Below, piece by piece: positions 3,772-58,180 of a stretch of DNA of 64,000 nucleotides. Location of the stretch: positions 606 through 64,605 of the forward strand of contig JAUPKX010000007.1 in assembly GCA_030837225.1 (NCBI GenBank), given 5' to 3'. The notes under the pieces are model-generated. The model was given only the letters and a program-made list of their open reading frames with translations. It had not been told where the DNA came from and made no database searches. Numbering within the stretch: position 1 is the first letter of the stretch; every line of letters begins with the position of its first letter. The stretch is from Patescibacteria group bacterium (lineage in GTDB: Bacteria > Patescibacteriota > Minisyncoccia > Phycocordibacterales > Phycocordibacteraceae). A program made the position numbers and the translations under genes.

Positions 3772-5571
3772 CTAGCGTTCCGAGTCCTGCACCATCTTCA
3801 TAAACACGTCCTGCGGGATGTCCATCTTCGCGTGCTCGCCACGACGCTTCTTTCCCTTCTTTTGCTTCTCGAGAAGTTTCATCTTTCGGGTGATGTCGCC
3901 TCCATAGAGGTATCCCGTAACATCCTTGCGGAGCGCTGAAATAGAACGCGATGCCACGATACGCCCAAGCGCATGCGCCTGAATCTTAAGAACGAACATC
4001 TGGCGCGGCAGAATCTCATGGAGCTTCTCCACCATACGGTCTCCCTCCTCAACAACACGGCGGCGAGACACGACGCGCGCAAATGCCGGCACCGGTTCTT
4101 CCGCAACAAAGATCTCAAGCTTCACAACGTCCGCAGGGCGCTCATCCAAGAACTCGTATGAAAGCGACGCGTACCCTGATGAAGCATTCTTCACCTTGTC
4201 GAAGAACCCGCGCATAAGTTCTCGAAGCGGCATCTCAACCGCAAGCTCAATGCGTCCATCAAGATGCGTCTCGGTCTCGAGCACGTTCCCTTCGTGGTCA
4301 TGGAAGAGCTGGATCATGTTCGAGAGCGAGTCAGGCGGCGTAATAAGCACCACCTTCACCCACGGTTCTTCGATCTTCTCAGTCTCGCCGAACGCTGGGA
4401 ACTTGGACGGCGTGTAGACAGTCTCACGCTTTCCGCGCTTGTCCGTAACAACGTACGCGATGGTGGGAATAGTAACGATAAGCTCGAGATCGAACTCCCG
4501 CTTTAAGCGCTCAATAATAATCTCGAGATGGAGCATGCCGAGGAATCCGCAACGAAACCCGCGCCCGAGCATGCCGGAGGATTCTTCCTCAAAGGTAAGG
4601 GATGAGTCCGAGAGACGAAGACGCTCTAGAGATTGCCGAAGTTCCGTGAGATCGTCCTGGCTCTCCGGATACACCGATGCCCATACAACAGGACGTGGAC
4701 GCTCGAAGCCTTCAAGACCCGTCGTAGATCCTGCGTTCGCTATAACCGTGTCTCCCACATTAACGACACCTGCCTGCTTAACGCCGGTAACCAGGTACCC
4801 AATCTCTCCTGCGGACAAAGACTCAGTCGCAAGCTCATCTGGCATGAAAATACCCGTCTCAAGGGCTGTAAAACGCTCTCCAGCGGCCGCAAACCGAAGT
4901 ACGTCCCCTTTCTTAAATACCCCATCAAACACGCGCATAAAGACCGTAATCCCGCGGTGCGTAGAATAGGAGAAATCGAAGATAAGCGCCCGTGGTCCGC
5001 CCTCGCTCGGTCTCGGGGCCGGAACCTTTGCGATGACTTCTTCAAGGAGAGCCTCGACGCCTTCCCCGGTACGTCCCGAAACCGCGAGCACGCTATCAGG
5101 ATCTACTGAAAGGAGCTCCGCGAGCTCGAGTGACACGTCGTCAGGACGCGCTGCAGGGGAGTCGATCTTAGAAATAACCGGGATAACCACACAGCCCGCC
5201 GCCTTCGCCATCTGAAGCGTGGTTAGGGTCTGCGCTTGAATTCCCTGTGTTGAGTCGACAAGTAAAAGGACTCCTTCGACAGCAGAAAGGGAGCGAGATA
5301 CTTCGTATGCGAAGTCGATATGCCCAGGTGTGTCTATGAGATTTAATACATATTCGGTACCATCCTTTCCACGATATTTCATCTTTGCTGGCTGCATCTT
5401 GATGGTGATGCCGCGCTCACGCTCGAGATCCATTTTGTCGAGAACCTGGTCGCGCATCTTTCGGGCCTCAATGGTGCCAGTTCGCTCCAGCATTCGGTCA
5501 GCAAGCGTAGACTTTCCGTGGTCCACGTGTGCAATGATGCTGAAGTTCCTGATATTACTGAATGGTTCCAT
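3772..5571 (-). CDS. lepA: elongation factor 4 (LepA)
   Basis: 599 aa; G-domain AHVDHGKST, DTPGHIDF; LepA-specific C-terminal domain. Confidence 0.95.
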   Translation of the reverse strand: MEPFSNIRNFSIIAHVDHGKSTLADRMLERTGTIEARKMRDQVLDKMDLERERGITIKMQPAKMKYRGKDGTEYVLNLIDTPGHIDFAYEVSRSLSAVEGVLLLVDSTQGIQAQTLTTLQMAKAAGCVVIPVISKIDSPAARPDDVSLELAELLSVDPDSVLAVSGRTGEGVEALLEEVIAKVPAPRPSEGGPRALIFDFSYSTHRGITVFMRVFDGVFKKGDVLRFAAAGERFTALETGIFMPDELATESLSAGEIGYLVTGVKQAGVVNVGDTVIANAGSTTGLEGFERPRPVVWASVYPESQDDLTELRQSLERLRLSDSSLTFEEESSGMLGRGFRCGFLGMLHLEIIIERLKREFDLELIVTIPTIAYVVTDKRGKRETVYTPSKFPAFGETEKIEEPWVKVVLITPPDSLSNMIQLFHDHEGNVLETETHLDGRIELAVEMPLRELMRGFFDKVKNASSGYASLSYEFLDERPADVVKLEIFVAEEPVPAFARVVSRRRVVEEGDRMVEKLHEILPRQMFVLKIQAHALGRIVASRSISALRKDVTGYLYGGDITRKMKLLEKQKKGKKRRGEHAKMDIPQDVFMKMVQDSER

Positions 5572-6385
5572 GTAGCCTTCGAGTCCTTATGTTTTGTAAT
5601 ACCATATTTGCGTCAGCTCTGCGCTTTTCGTGCTGTAGCCATGGCTCTAAGTAATTAATCAGTTTCTCTAATGAGCCTGCTTCATTTACTGAAATTCGCC
5701 ATAGATCTTCCTTCCATTCCCATCCATAATCGTCTTCTCCTTTTCTAGCGATAATCCGAAACTTGCTATTCAATCCATGCCTTAAGAAAAGAGCGTGTAT
5801 ATCAGAAAGAATTGTGTAATCGTATGCATCGACTTTAAATCTCCCTCTTCCTTGATTTAAGCCAAGCGTTCCTTCGGCATCAATATAACCTGCCGAGAAT
5901 GCCCATTGCAGCATATCGCTTGACGCAAGCCACGTACGTATTTCCGGCGGATACTTCGTAAGTAAAAAAGAAAAGCTTGTATCCAAATAGCACGTCATCT
6001 GAGTACTTCGAGTACCTTCTGAAACTGTTACAGTCCCATATTTTTCAAACAAATTCTTGAAAAGGTTTCCTTGAACAGCATGTGTCGAGTGCGATCGTAC
6101 GACTATGGTTTCCGAAGCTCCTTTAGGCTGGTACACGTTGAGGTCTCCATACCGAAAGCCAAGCATATAGGCCTTCTCTAGATCCGTGCCTGAAAAGTTA
6201 TACTTCTCATAACGCATCTGCGCTGCACTCTTTGTTTTAAGGGGTATCCCAGCTTCTAGAAGACGACTGCGGACTGTAATGGATGTACAACCGTATTCTA
6301 TCGCTATCTTTGCAGGAGACCATTTCTCATTAATATAGAGATGTCGTAGATCCGATTCAGGTATGAGGATTTTTGTCCTTCCCAT
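5555..6385 (-). CDS. HTH + double-motif LAGLIDADG homing endonuclease-like protein
   Basis: Two dodecapeptide motifs (AYMLGFRYGDLNV and AFSAGYIDAEGTLGL); N-terminal HTH; AT-rich relative to flanks; 3' end overlaps lepA start by 17 nt. Confidence 0.7.
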   Translation of the reverse strand: MGRTKILIPESDLRHLYINEKWSPAKIAIEYGCTSITVRSRLLEAGIPLKTKSAAQMRYEKYNFSGTDLEKAYMLGFRYGDLNVYQPKGASETIVVRSHSTHAVQGNLFKNLFEKYGTVTVSEGTRSTQMTCYLDTSFSFLLTKYPPEIRTWLASSDMLQWAFSAGYIDAEGTLGLNQGRGRFKVDAYDYTILSDIHALFLRHGLNSKFRIIARKGEDDYGWEWKEDLWRISVNEAGSLEKLINYLEPWLQHEKRRADANMVLQNIRTRRLHGTIQ

Positions 6386-6432: not shown

Positions 6433-8115
6433 CTATGCATCCGGACGATCAGAGAGGACGGGTCCGGAAGGCTTGAGCGCGGTCGATGGCTTCATGCGCT
6501 TCAGGGAGTCAACGAGATCCTTGAACTCGCGGTTCGCGAGAAGGGCAAGGACCGCCGCCGCAACCATAAGACCCACCATACCAGCAATGAAGGCCTCGGT
6601 GAAGACAACGAGAAGCGTGGTCGCTGGTGCAAGATTCCCGAGGAACGAAAGCACACCATACGCAGCTGACCCACCAAGGATTGCAGAGGCTGCTCCCTCA
6701 AACATCGGACGGACCAAGGAACGTGCAACACCCGGCGCAACCGCACTGAGCGTAACGAGTGCGAATACGCCCGTTGCTACCGATCCGAGCATGCTGCCAA
6801 GCGCGATGAGAAGGATGGCCGTTCCGGGGACTCCCTCAACACGAAGGAGTGCCTCAACAAAGTACCCAACCGCCGGGAACTGTGCGGACAACATCAGAAG
6901 CCCTACTGCCGAAAGAACGGCCACAACGAGTCCCCCAATCTGAATCAATAATGGGTTCCAGGATTTCTTGGCGGCATAGAACGCGCGGGATGCGAGCAAC
7001 ACAATACCCTGCGCCATAAGACCAATAACAAGGAGCGCGAGTATTGCTGCTGTGAGTCTCGTTGCATCCCAATCAAAGGCACCGGTGCCGAGCACGATAC
7101 GCACAATGTGCGCTCGCAACACGAGAATAAGCACCGAGAGAATCGCAGACCAAAATACAATGTGTCGTGCTGCTGCAGACAACGTCGCCTTGAACGCGTC
7201 GTATCGCTTAGCTTCCATGCTTTCGGCCAAGACCGGGAATGCGGCGGTTGCATAGGACGCGGCAATAAGGGAGAGCGGTACCGCCTGAAGATTCTGTGCC
7301 AGCGAGAACACGGCGATGCTTCCCTCACCCGTTCTTGCTGCAAGGATTGTCAGGATAAGTGCCGTAACCGATCCCATAGCGAGCGCCAGGGAACGTGGGA
7401 CCGAATCGCTCATAACACTCCAAAGCACCTTTGGAGACGGGATAACGAGTCTTGGGAACATCCGTTCCTCAACCAAGACCGGGATATGGATAAGAAGATG
7501 CGCCAAGGCACCCGCCAACACTCCAATACCAATACCAGGAAGGCCATAGAGTGGATACAGGAGCACTGTGCCCGCAATGATGCCGAGGTTGTAGAGCACC
7601 GGCGAAAGCGCAAACAGGAAGAAGCGACGGCGCACCTGCGTCACACTCGTAACAATTCCCGAAAGCCCGAGCAGTATCGGCTGAACAAGAAGGATGCGTG
7701 CGAGTAGCACGAACCCTTCTGCGTTCGGAGAATCAATTGCTGCCGGGAACAACGCAAACAACAACGTCGGCGCGAAGAGCGCGAGCACAAGACACAGCAA
7801 CCCTCCTCCGATAAAGAGGAAGGATGCAGTTTGCGAGATGAGCTCTTGCGATTCTTTTCGTGTTCCTCCCGCTATCCGCGGGATGAGGACGTACGCTGAG
7901 ACTAGGGACGCAACGAGTGCGAACACCAGGTCTGGAACTTTGAATGCTGCGTAGTAGAGATCGAGTACGTCACCCGCCCCGAAGCTGTGGGCGAACAATC
8001 GGTCTCTCAAAAGAGCGAGTGCCTGAGACGCAAGCGTCAGCCCAGCAAGCACGTACGCGGCCTGATGTAGGCCGCGTACGGGTGCTGTAAGCGAGGTGAG
8101 TATCTTTCGTACCAT
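6433..8115 (-). CDS. murJ: lipid II flippase MurJ (MviN family)
   Basis: 560 aa, ~14 TM helices; N-terminal MurJ signature ...DLYYAAFKVPDLVFAL... Confidence 0.8.
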   Translation of the reverse strand: MVRKILTSLTAPVRGLHQAAYVLAGLTLASQALALLRDRLFAHSFGAGDVLDLYYAAFKVPDLVFALVASLVSAYVLIPRIAGGTRKESQELISQTASFLFIGGGLLCLVLALFAPTLLFALFPAAIDSPNAEGFVLLARILLVQPILLGLSGIVTSVTQVRRRFFLFALSPVLYNLGIIAGTVLLYPLYGLPGIGIGVLAGALAHLLIHIPVLVEERMFPRLVIPSPKVLWSVMSDSVPRSLALAMGSVTALILTILAARTGEGSIAVFSLAQNLQAVPLSLIAASYATAAFPVLAESMEAKRYDAFKATLSAAARHIVFWSAILSVLILVLRAHIVRIVLGTGAFDWDATRLTAAILALLVIGLMAQGIVLLASRAFYAAKKSWNPLLIQIGGLVVAVLSAVGLLMLSAQFPAVGYFVEALLRVEGVPGTAILLIALGSMLGSVATGVFALVTLSAVAPGVARSLVRPMFEGAASAILGGSAAYGVLSFLGNLAPATTLLVVFTEAFIAGMVGLMVAAAVLALLANREFKDLVDSLKRMKPSTALKPSGPVLSDRPDA

Positions 8116-10677: not shown

Positions 10678-10992
10678 GGACCGGGCCTGACGATCGCTCT
10701 ACCCTTCGGGGCTAGGGAGGAAAGTCCGAACACAGGCTCTCCGGAGCAGCACGGTAGCGGGTAACGCCCGTCCGCAGTGATGCGCGAGGTGCGAACAGAA
10801 ACGCCCAATGTTGAAAGACTAGGGATCCTCTATGAGGATGGGCTGGCAGCAATGCCAGACTGAAACGGCTAAATCCTTACCTCTGTGCAAGGCCGTGCCC
10901 GCGAAAGCGGGAGCGCCGCTCGAGGCGTACGGCAACGTACGTCCCAGATAGATGGTCGTCCATGACAGAATTCGGCTTATGACCCGGTCCAG
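10678..10992 (+). ncRNA. rnpB: RNase P RNA (bacterial type A, compact)
   Basis: P4 consensus AGGGAGGAAAGTCCGAACAC; 3' region ACAGAATTCGGCTTATGACCCGGTCC pairing with 5' GGACCGGG (P1); about 315 nt. Confidence 0.85.
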
Positions 10993-10998
10993 ATACAT

Positions 10999-49089: not shown

Positions 49090-49185
49090 AACTTTGTTTA
49101 CTTAGGCCATTTCTTGACCCAATCGAGAGTCTCATTGAAAAGCTGCTCTTCAGTTCCCTTTCTATAACTGATCATCCAAACGAGC

Positions 49186-49254
49186 TGCGGGACTAGGACT
49201 CGAACCTAGATAGCATTCTCCAGAGGAATGTGTCCTACCTTTAGACGATCCCGC
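49186..49254 (-). tRNA. tRNA-Gln(CTG)
   Basis: Acceptor GCGGGAT/(G)TCCCGC, anticodon stem CATTC/GAATG with loop CTCTGGA, T-loop TTCGAGT; compact (69 nt), no encoded CCA. Confidence 0.65.
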
Positions 49255-49258
49255 AATA

Positions 49259-49927
49259 CTACGAAGCGTAGTGTCGGAATTCTAGCAAATCAGCTAGATT
49301 TTGCACCTCTTCCTTCCTCGAGACCTGGATATCATATCGTGAGCGGTGCGGATGGAAACCGAGGCCTTGCACCAGGTTAAAGACGATTTCTAGCAGGACA
49401 GGATTCCGATTGGTGAAGAAGAGTTTATGTGTGTAGGTGGCCTCATGATGAGCCACGCATCCTTCTGCCTCGTACAGGCCCCGCAGGAAGCGGATTCGAT
49501 ATCGCTTGCTTTTCTCAATCCAAGCAGGCAGTACGTAGTTTAGATGGGCGCGTGACCCGCAAGGGATACCGAGTCTAGAGCTTATGTTTTTCTCATAGAT
49601 CGTTATGGTCACGGCATTCGTAGCTTTCACTTTCGTAACAAACGGCTCCTTACTAAAGACCCGCTCAACCATTGCAGTGTAGCGCTCGGTAAATCCTACA
49701 CTCGAAAAGTTACCCGTAATACGCAGGGATTCGCACCGAGGATGCTTCCCGATATGTCCGTCTCCGAGAATAACGCCAATAAGTTCAGCGAAGTCTCCGT
49801 TTTTCTCTATAGATTTATACTCACTCTTAATATACCCAAGCCGCTTCTGTTCATCTCTCCATGCTTTAAAATTGTCGAGCTTCTTGGCTCGCATCGTTTC
49901 GGAAATTTTCTTTGCACGCACATCCAT
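49259..49927 (-). CDS. double-motif LAGLIDADG homing endonuclease-like protein
   Basis: Motifs FAELIGVILGDGHIG and IRFLRGLYEAEGCV; AT-richer than flanks; stop codon 4 nt from 5' end of tRNA-Gln on same strand. Confidence 0.75.
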   Translation of the reverse strand: MDVRAKKISETMRAKKLDNFKAWRDEQKRLGYIKSEYKSIEKNGDFAELIGVILGDGHIGKHPRCESLRITGNFSSVGFTERYTAMVERVFSKEPFVTKVKATNAVTITIYEKNISSRLGIPCGSRAHLNYVLPAWIEKSKRYRIRFLRGLYEAEGCVAHHEATYTHKLFFTNRNPVLLEIVFNLVQGLGFHPHRSRYDIQVSRKEEVQNLADLLEFRHYAS

Positions 49928-55529: not shown

Positions 55530-56396
55530 TTATACCTCAGGCGGAGCGGTAGCGTCCATGAAGCTATCCAGGTCTCCTTCAAGCACACCGTCTGGATCAT
55601 GGGATTCGTTCCCTGTTACGTGATCTTTCACTAGCTTATACGGATGAAGAACGTAGGAGCGCATCTGGCTCCCCCATTCGTTGGCCGTTGTAGTCGCAAT
55701 AGAGCGGCCCTTTGCCTCTGCGAGACGCTTATCCTCCTCTATACGGAAAAGCTTCGCCTTAACGAGCTCCATGGCTTTCTCGCGGTTCGCGAGCTGACTC
55801 CGTTCGCTTGAGATATGTGCGGAAACACCAGACGGCGTGTGCACAATGCGCACCGCGGTCTCTCGCTTATTCACGTTCTGTCCGCCAGCACCACCTGCAC
55901 GCGCAAACTGAATATCAAGATCGTCCGGTTTCAATTCAATCTCCTCGTTCCCCGCGAGCTTCGGAAGTACTTCAACGAGCGCAAATGAAGTCTGGCGCTT
56001 TGCATTTGAATTGAACGGCGAAATGCGCACTAAGCGATGCACCCCAGCTTCGTTCTTAAGACGTCCGTATGCACCCTTCCCTTGAATATCGAGCAATACG
56101 TTTCGGTACCCTCCCTGGGTGTTCTCATTCGCATGAAGCTCCCATACATTCCATCCCTTGTTCCCTGCATACCCTTCGTACATACGTCGGAGCATACGCA
56201 CAAAATCTTCAGCATCGTCCCCACCGGCTCCTGCAAGGATAGCGAGAGTTGCCGGACCTGTATCATGCCCGTCACCAGTGCCTCCGTCTTTGAGGCTCTG
56301 ATACTCCGCAATCCTTCTTTGGGCTTCTACAGGATCCTTCCAAAACTCAGGAGAGGCCATGAGAGTCTCGAGTTCCTGTATGCGCTCTTCGTTCAT
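55530..56396 (-). CDS. prfB: peptide chain release factor 2 (SPF/GGQ), compact 288-aa form
   Basis: Codon-recognition motif RISPFNS (SPF), GGQ motif [11 protein letters not shown]; N-terminal domain 1 largely missing; no CTT-TGA-C frameshift site and no upstream out-of-frame leader. Confidence 0.8.
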
Positions 56397-57110: not shown

Positions 57111-57186
57111 TGGAGCCGAAGGCCGGATTCGAACCGGCGACATTTCGCTTACGATGCGAACGCTCTACCAACTGAGCTACTTCGGC
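57111..57186 (-). tRNA. tRNA-Thr(CGT)
   Basis: Acceptor GCCGAAG/CTTCGGC, D-arm GCTC-AGTTGGTA-GAGC, anticodon stem TTCGC/GCGAA with loop ATCGTAA, T-loop TTCGAAT, encoded CCA. Confidence 0.85.
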
Positions 57187-57858: not shown

Positions 57859-57928
57859 AGCAGAAACCCCTATGAAGAATTCATAAAGAGAAAGACGCGG
57901 CGTGTACCGTGTCTTTCTCTTATCTTTG

Positions 57929-58180
57929 AGCCGATGGGCAGAATTGAACTGCCGACCTACTCCTTCGCTTACACCTTCTCTCCAGAGCCACGCGGAGAAG
58001 GGCTAGACTGTATCTTTATCTCAGAGAGATACCCTTGTCAGTCGTTCGGGCGCCTGAGCGCCACGGTCTTGGCTTGTGGAGCTATTAACCGTTATTCGGG
58101 ATTCACCTATTCCTCGCGGAACAGGTGGGCAGGGCTTTGCGGCCCACCATGGAGTTGCTCTACCCCTGAGCTACATCGGC
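57929..58180 (-). tRNA. tRNA (probably Thr, anticodon GGT) interrupted by ~180-nt group-I-like intron in anticodon loop
   Basis: 5' exon 58146..58180 GCCGATG-TA-GCTC-AGGGGTA-GAGC-A-ACTCC-ATGGT; 3' exon 57929..57965 AA-GGAGT-AGGTC-GGCAG-TTCAATT-CTGCC-CATCGGC-T; exons give a perfect cloverleaf; no encoded CCA. Confidence 0.6.
57966..58145 (-). other. intervening sequence (candidate self-splicing group I-type intron, 180 nt)
   Basis: Inserted after anticodon position 36 (exon ends in U, intron ends in G before AA); GC-rich nested helices (GGGC-cgcaaa-GCCC; CACCTG..CAGGTG; GGCGCTCAGGCGCC); loose resemblance to minimal tRNA group I introns. Confidence 0.45.

Follow-up and report, generated by a model that had tools for sequence, protein, structure and literature searches.

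The window, by which the whole analysed stretch of 64 kb (64,000 nt) is meant, carries on its minus strand a split tRNA-Thr(GGU) gene with exons at 58180..58146 and 57965..57929 and an insert at 58145..57966. The 5' exon (58180..58146, minus strand, 35 nt) provides the 5' strand of the acceptor stem (GCCGAUG), then UA, the D arm (GCUC AGGGGUA GAGC), a single A, the 5' strand of the anticodon stem (ACUCC) and loop nucleotides 32-36 (AUGGU). The 3' exon (57965..57929, minus strand, 37 nt) opens with A37 and A38 and continues through the 3' strand of the anticodon stem (GGAGU), the variable loop (AGGUC), the T arm (GGCAG UUCAAUU CUGCC) and the 3' strand of the acceptor stem (CAUCGGC) to a discriminator U; it has no encoded CCA. 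The 5' exon is identical or near-identical to those of three other loci (L019, L038 and L061).

When the exons are joined, minimum free energy folding returns a perfect cloverleaf (-29.7 kcal/mol, z = -3.4) in which every stem quoted in the original prediction is present without mismatch, and ARAGORN reports a tRNA-Thr(ggt) of 73 nt, in agreement with the GGU anticodon that had been proposed. The insertion point falls exactly between nucleotides 36 and 37, as had been claimed and as is also found in 67 other genomes. U36 precedes it and a G (G180) ends the insert, which bears out the earlier reading of both splice sites. The predicted spliced junction joins CCAUGGU to AAGGAG, that is, ...ACUCCAUGGU to AAGGAGUAGG.... 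The insert itself is 180 nt long and begins with GGGCC. Its description as GC-rich holds in a mild sense only, with a G+C content of 56.7% against ~52% for the window.

In the window the split gene is called neither by default ARAGORN nor by the Rfam tRNA model at its gathering score. With introns allowed, ARAGORN miscalls the interval 58180-57929 (minus strand) as a tRNA-Ala(ggc) with a 158-nt intron, a boundary error of the type reported for Patescibacteria tRNA introns by Nakagawa et al. (2026, mSystems, PMC13011429). The split gene is the sole tRNA-Thr(GGU) candidate within the 64-kb window. A tRNA-Thr(CGU) gene at 57111-57186 lies 743 bp away, close to the 750 bp originally given. Just 3' of the tRNA, reading of the minus strand reveals a 10-bp hairpin (AGAGAAAGAC...GUCUUUCUCU) followed by UUAU at 57887..57920, a possible terminator at low confidence, of which a terminator scan flagged the inner stem only, on the plus strand. 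A permissive Rfam scan gave spurious matches to mir-71, at this hairpin, and to SNORD38.

Five of the proteins encoded in the window have identical counterparts at NCBI in the series MDQ12995xx, from a metagenome-assembled genome (MAG) labelled 'Patescibacteria group bacterium', and the same locus with the same 180-nt insert occurs on contigs of several Logan assemblies. The neighbours of the split gene encode a DUF2238 membrane protein, an Exo_endo_phos hydrolase, a ROK kinase, PGI and release factor 2 (RF2), none of which is intron-related, and inspection of these genes gave no candidate maturase inside or adjoining the intron.

A family of inserts in tRNA-Thr(GGU) genes

Homologues were sought in one genome per GTDB species as a tRNA-Thr(GGU) 5' half followed by anything but A37, which gave at least 120 loci, and a script then completed the cloverleaf downstream of each 5' half. 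At least 67 further tRNA-Thr(GGU) genes were found with an insert of 176-230 nt exactly at 36/37, so that with the window at least 68 species are represented. Among the matches listed, the carriers are nearly all Patescibacteria MAGs, and their groups include the Kaiser-, Wolfe-, Jorgensen-, Moran-, Uhr-, Magasanik-, Azam-, Nomura-, Vogel-, Peregrini- and Saccharibacteria. Chance can be set aside as the source of the split gene, since the gene recurs with the same insert position in 67 further species-level genomes and covariation links the two strands of the anticodon stem on either side of the insert.

An alignment of 68 sequences made with MAFFT (A1) contains the near-invariant core blocks GAAUCCCGAAUAACGGUUAA, AAGACCGUGGCG, CGCCCGAACGACUGACAAGGG, AAGAUACAGUCUAGCC and GGUGUAAGCG. 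The intervening hairpins show free variation, and the joining regions hardly vary. RNAalifold alone recovers the anticodon stem across the insert together with P1, P2, P4, P5, P6, P7, P8 and P9. P3 was then added to this structure by hand as a pseudoknot before pairs were counted. Of 3,587 cells, 95.5% pair, against 35-46% when the partners are slid by 1-3 columns, and compensatory changes on both sides occur in 37 of the 53 pairs, values which none of 500 shuffles reaches. All five anticodon-stem pairs covary. With the P3 pseudoknot and P9.0, the structure prediction from P1 to P9 that had been suggested with the original prediction is complete.

A covariance model, R1, was built from an alignment (A3) of 50 family members with the window left out. 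The window intron matches R1 over its full length at 190.1 bits (E=1e-71), and an R1 scan of the 64 kb found no second copy. The sequence of the window intron is 87% identical to that of L061. Together, the covariation across 68 sequences, this R1 score and the finding of all group I helices substantiate the original claim of a group I-type intron of ~180 nt.

The intron (57966..58145, minus strand) is numbered here so that position i corresponds to window position 58146 - i. P1 (58128..58148, minus strand) brings together exon nucleotides G34 G35 U36 and intron G1-G3 with intron C13-C18. The internal guide sequence G16 C17 C18 is read against the anticodon itself, with a U36-G16 wobble at the 5' splice site. 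This U-G pair is found in 68 of 68 sequences, as is each of the two flanking G-C pairs (G34 and G35 with C18 and C17), and these three base pairs are the whole exon part of P1. The P1 extension covaries in the 68-sequence alignment (GU:50 UA:9 GC:8 and GC:46 AU:16), and other family members often have an unpaired pyrimidine between the extension and the guide G. P2 (positions 20-28/33-41; 58105..58126, minus strand) is a hairpin with compensatory changes in 8 of 8 pairs, capped by the GNRA tetraloop GCGA (58114-58117); the loop is GNRA in 66 of 68 sequences. An alternative P1 register with a U36-A20 pair (GGUGGGC/GCCCACC) was rejected, as positions 21-22 vary freely and belong to P2 whilst the U36-G16 register never varies and has a covarying extension.

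The 5' strand of P3, C46-C48 (58098..58100, minus strand), pairs as a pseudoknot with 58032-58034. The helix is only 3 bp long and occurs in the combinations CCC/GGG, CUC/GAG and CCU/AGG (CG:63 UA:4 UG:1 and CG:61 UA:3 UG:2 for two of its pairs). P4 (54-59/78-83) encloses P5 (64-66/72-74) at 58063..58092 on the minus strand, with A-rich J4/5 and J5/4. P4 is invariant across the 68 sequences except for a U/C at one position, and all four aligned P5 pairs covary. The P6 hairpin (84-89/92-97; 58049..58062, minus strand) has compensatory changes in five of six pairs. It is followed on the minus strand at 58039..58048 by J6/7, which reads CGAAC in 65 of 68 sequences, and by the 5' strand of P7, G103-G107, which pairs with C136-C140. 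P7 is the same in 68 of 68 sequences, and G103-C140 is presumably the guanosine-binding pair, as in the P7 of Tetrahymena. The invariance of P4 and P7 is as expected for a catalytic core. Both P1 and P7, which the original prediction could not draw convincingly, are thus found, the former with the U36-G16 pair and the latter as G103-G107/C136-C140.

In the alignment, J7/3 (ACAA) and the 3' strand of P3, G112-G114, occupy 58032..58038 (minus strand), directly followed by the P8 hairpin (115-120/124-129; 58017..58031, minus strand), in which all four aligned pairs show compensatory change. J8/7 (AAGAUA; 60 of 68 sequences) and the 3' strand of P7, C136-C140, at 58006..58016 on the minus strand, match the Rfam group I consensus AAGAUAUAGUC. 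At the 3' end, on the minus strand at 57967..58003, the P9.0 pairs G143-C179 (GC:45 AU:20) and C144-G178 (CG:43 UA:20), supported by covariation, enclose the P9 hairpin (145-172), whose six pairs all covary. The last nucleotide, omega-G or G180 (57966..57966, minus strand), is a G in 68 of 69 family genes when the search did not demand it. A P10 helix between the 3' exon and the guide region was considered and discarded; it would have at most one A-U pair, which is lost in members with C there. The 180-nt intron contains no open reading frame (ORF) or endonuclease gene.

Several loci stand apart from the typical carriers. In L015 two tRNA-Thr(GGU) 5' halves lie 259 bp apart (5195-5222 and 5454-5481, plus strand), the first with a 181-nt family intron and the second running off the contig end, which suggests that the interrupted gene was duplicated in tandem. 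L072, on a 300-kb contig of the Bacteroidota isolate assembly Niastella populi CCTCC AB 208238 (NZ_LWBP01000002.1, 5226-5424, minus strand), has a 181-nt family member in a CPR-like tRNA-Thr(GGU) gene with a local G+C of 40%, which might reflect contamination, a horizontal transfer or true presence of the family beyond Patescibacteria. Three carriers (L092, L113 and L118) are labelled as Gammaproteobacteria or Bdellovibrionales MAGs, labels that may be wrong. In a Solirubrobacteraceae MAG of the Actinomycetota (L012, CAVWJK010000003.1) the tRNA-Thr(GGU) exons are 2,505 nt apart at the same 36/37 site, the insert being perhaps a large intron with an endonuclease gene, or else an insertion of another type. 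The same scan brought up a further set of interrupted tRNA genes (L008, L018, L021, L022, L041, L044, L046, L051, L082, L085 and L099), with discriminator A, a GUGUC variable loop and inserts of 219-250 nt, which resemble tRNA-Phe(GAA) genes in which an intron follows U33.

Class assignment and published relatives

The group I features are present as a full set in the window intron, namely the U-G wobble in P1, omega-G, a P3-P8 core with a P3/P7 pseudoknot, P4-P6, P9.0 and the conserved J8/7-P7. With its place at 36/37 of a tRNA-Thr(GGU) gene, its final G, its Patescibacteria host and its homology to the family (190.1 bits), the insert is very probably a genuine compact group I intron by architecture and a member of the 'divergent group I' family of CPR tRNA-Thr(GGU) genes.

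The search with the Rfam model RF00028 that had been proposed as a check gave a score of 11.7 bits (E=2.4). This lies below the gathering score of 50, and Rfam at gathering score finds no intron in the window, but the alignment is full length and places GAUAAAGAUACAGUCUAG on the J8/7-P7 consensus aUgAAGAUAUAGUCua. This low score, with the failure of default ARAGORN to call the gene, made the intron look unclassifiable. Five other members of the Thr family gave no match to RF00028 at E<=1, whereas the tRNA-Phe-type intron L018 is scored by it at 86 bits, which marks it as canonical group I and sets it apart from the Thr family. Conversely, R1 gives no match to L018 at E<=0.01, and 18.5 bits with L021. 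As the two models barely see each other's members, the Thr intron family is well separated from the canonical model.

Amongst better-studied introns, the td intron of T4 is one point of reference. R1 aligns its P1, P2 (with a GNRA loop), P3, J3/4, P4 and P5 at 25.5 bits, which fits the IA placement made in the literature, and the strings at J6/7-P7 (AACGACU) and J8/7-P7' (GAUAUAGUCUGCUC) are alike. A further likeness to IA2 phage introns is that phage structural genes harbour relatives of the window intron. The differences are that the window intron has no P7.1/P7.2 and no ORF, and has ~180 nt against the 1016 nt of td. There is indeed no room for P7.1/P7.2, since only ACAA (4 nt) separates P7 from P3' and P8 follows directly after P3'. 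On these sequence comparisons the window intron is related to IA2 (the T4 td type) but is not a canonical member.

The small, endonuclease-free IC3 introns of Azoarcus tRNA-Ile(CAU) and Agrobacterium tRNA-Arg(CCU) also occupy position 36/37 of a bacterial tRNA, and the Azoarcus intron presumably shares with the window intron the 3-bp exon-guide pairing, a GNRA-capped P2 and the lack of P5abc. They belong to another sequence family with different core sequences. Nakagawa et al. (PMC13011429) group the Thr introns, on a long branch, with the phylum's IA introns and class no Patescibacteria tRNA intron as IC. The tRNA-Asn/Asp 35/36 introns of Patescibacteria resemble the window intron in phylum, anticodon-loop site and IA affinity, and by eye the motifs GGUGAAU and AGCCAAG are common to both. 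They differ in being at 35/36 of another tRNA, longer and detectable by RF00028, and some of them have HNH endonuclease genes.

Introns of this kind have a published record. Castelle et al. (2018, Nat Rev Microbiol 16:629), as summarised in the preprint of Nakagawa et al., describe 'divergent group I' introns that occur only in tRNA-Thr(GGU), end in G and are invisible to Rfam. Williams (2020, bioRxiv 10.1101/2020.01.27.920355), whose tool is tFind, raised the number of bacterial tRNA intron types from 4 to 21 and lists 36/37 as the site of the Azoarcus Ile2 (Ile2.5Ug) and Agrobacterium Arg (Arg.5Ug) introns. Table 1 of Nakagawa et al. (PMC13011429) has tRNA-Thr(GGU) introns at 36/37 in three complete Patescibacteria genomes, which were 'not detected' by RF00028, were found by tFind and were termed 'divergent group I introns'. 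The complete Wolfebacteria genome that carries L069 (CP011209.1) is probably one of these three. The window intron agrees with the published introns in phylum, tRNA, anticodon, site, final G, invisibility to RF00028 and absence of an endonuclease gene, and differs in nothing of substance, being merely 4 nt shorter than the survey minimum of 184 nt. It is one more copy of the published family, and its kind has been known since 2018. The earlier suggestion of a novel minimal intron class does not stand, given the full group I architecture and the publication of the family in 2018, 2020 and 2026.

The intron had also been described as at or below the smallest known size. At 180 nt it does fall under the published range for bacterial tRNA introns of 184-894 nt (PMC13011429), but the Thr family reaches 176 nt, with other members of 176-178 nt, and so the window copy is not special in size.

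Predicted splicing and its alternatives

In the architecture of the tRNA precursor shown by these comparisons, the anticodon G34 G35 U36 pairs with the guide G16 C17 C18 to form P1, placing the U36-G16 wobble at the 5' splice site, P3 and P7 make the core pseudoknot, flanked by P4-P6 and P8, and the two-base-pair P9.0 lies beside the terminal G180. By analogy with other group I introns, a splicing route can be proposed for this precursor. A free guanosine bound in P7, probably at G103-C140, would attack after U36. G180, held by P9.0, would then replace the guanosine, and the freed 3' OH of U36 would attack after G180, joining U36 to A37 and releasing the intron. Docking of the P2 GNRA loop, and of the P9 loop in some members, on helix receptors probably steadies the small core. 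The product would be a normal 72-nt tRNA-Thr(GGU), followed by 5' processing by RNase P, trimming of the 3' end and CCA addition. It might be speculated that the re-forming anticodon stem helps to align the exons.

The split gene is probably the only tRNA-Thr(GGU) gene of the cell. Nakagawa et al. (PMC13011429) note that an intron-bearing tRNA gene is usually the sole one for its anticodon, and in the available portion of their tRNAscan counts the three intron genomes have 2 Thr genes against 3 in most others, which suggests that splicing is probably essential. In the absence of an endonuclease gene, the intron is most likely inherited vertically, and it is probably hard to lose, as imprecise loss would destroy an essential anticodon loop.

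Three other explanations may be set against a compact group I intron. The failure of default ARAGORN and of the Rfam tRNA model to call the gene might suggest a pseudogene with a decayed, non-functional insert. Such a reading has next to no probability, as purifying selection on exons and intron is obvious across 68 species, the five anticodon-stem pairs covary, compensatory changes preserve the pairing of the intron helices and the core does not vary. Moreover, complete genomes with the intron have one Thr gene fewer than most others, as far as the available tRNAscan counts go. It is just as improbable, to the point of being negligible, that the insert represents a new minimal class, self-splicing or protein-spliced, unrelated to group I. 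The sub-threshold RF00028 score and a family size of 176-180 nt, below the ~205 nt of the Azoarcus intron, could be read in that way. However, each hallmark of group I was looked for and found, from the P1 wobble pair and the final omega-G to P4-P6, P9.0, the J8/7 consensus and the pseudoknot of P3 and P7. At the level of the covariance model the family resembles the T4 td intron, and the literature already places it under group I.

Less readily dismissed, if still improbable, is a group I fold that works inefficiently alone, its small core (a 3-bp P3 and a 3-bp exon-guide pairing) needing the help of a protein, either cofactor or chaperone. Dependence on proteins in vivo is common among group I introns, and the helices here are very short. 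The published demonstration of self-splicing in vitro concerns the Asn and Asp 35/36 introns, the only ones assayed (PMC13011429). Against this, there is no maturase candidate in or adjoining the intron, which has the DUF2238 membrane protein and the Exo_endo_phos hydrolase genes as neighbours, and the GNRA loop L2 and invariant junctions suggest a self-sufficient tertiary fold. The Azoarcus intron, with ~205 nt, self-splices well. Even with a protein partner the chemistry would remain that of group I.

Should the members of 176-180 nt prove to be self-splicing, they would rank as the smallest group I ribozymes in nature, below the Azoarcus intron (~205 nt), which is to our knowledge the smallest natural group I intron on record, and they would make an attractive minimal system for work on structure and folding. 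The finding changes nothing known about intron biology, and its residual value is modest, lying in the annotation and Rfam blind spot, the predicted self-splicing at 176-180 nt and the phage relatives. As the gene is missed or miscalled by ARAGORN and the Rfam tRNA model, estimates of CPR genome completeness from tRNAs and conclusions on codon usage are affected, a consequence for annotation already pointed out by Nakagawa et al. (PMC13011429). The blind spot of RF00028 extends to a whole widespread group I lineage, in at least 68 species and in phage contigs, and a model to close it could be started from the alignments A1 and A3 and from R1.

Phage relatives and other genes of the window

The core 16-mer GAACGACUGACAAGGG occurs in 36 IMG/VR contigs (L127-L162), of which ~25 have a full intron homologue scoring 74-140 bits against R1. 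These homologues lie in protein-coding DNA of uncultivated phage contigs, with the same GCC guide and an upstream exon that ends in GGU. Examples lie at L134:3663-3865 (plus strand), L153:1866-2070 (minus strand) and L144:6270-6473, 6743-6943 and 7559-7756 (plus strand); L144 and L160 each have three copies within 1.5 kb. Removal of the L134 intron at the analogous U/G boundaries restores a major head protein to full length (phrog_9953, profile positions 8-327 of 329), which provides an independent check of the splice rule. Head-protein matches are also found in L143 and L159. The phage 3' splice sites were picked by ORF continuity, which is unreliable at several loci (L143 and L144 are cut short), and exact phage boundaries are taken from L134 only.

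RF00028 gave no match in any of six phage contigs, and blastn of the window intron and one phage relative against 50,697 deposited phage genomes returned no match. A literature search for introns of this type in phage capsid genes found nothing specific. It is a tentative suggestion, with the balance somewhat against it, that the CPR tRNA-Thr introns and the phage head-gene introns form one compact group I sub-lineage of ~176-230 nt, IA-related and without P7.1/P7.2, with a shared GGU/GCC P1, invisible to RF00028 and absent from deposited phage genomes. If they were one lineage, the phage copies would point to phages as the route of the intron into the CPR tRNA gene.

Of the three LAGLIDADG genes originally counted in the window, two are borne out by matches to Pfam LAGLIDADG_3, the free-standing ORFs at 49259-49927 (minus strand, E = 1.6e-6) and 5555-6385 (minus strand, E = 2.2e-5). 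A strict motif regex gave no match in the window, and a loose motif scan found the same two ORFs and no third. The best guess for the third, the ORF at 1015-1710, has a weak HTH match only. The ORF at 49259-49927 ends 3 nt before a tRNA-Gln(CUG) gene (49184-49255) and that at 1015-1710 ends 20 nt before a tRNA-Phe gene (921-994), and endonuclease-like genes that abut tRNA genes in this way may mark former or current mobile insertions. The proposal of an uncoupled intron/endonuclease system loses its force, as free-standing LAGLIDADG genes and endonuclease-free tRNA introns have already been reported as usual in the phylum.

Two further genes of the window deserve mention. A bacterial class A RNase P RNA at 10678-10994 (plus strand; 125 bits) has 317 nt against a model of 367 positions, a reduction in line with the general decrease in RNA size reported for CPR. 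The RF2 ORF at 55530-56396 (minus strand) encodes 288 aa only, with a PCRF match starting from profile position 95 of 194, and its N-terminal part is probably encoded in another frame upstream, through the usual programmed +1 frameshift of prfB.
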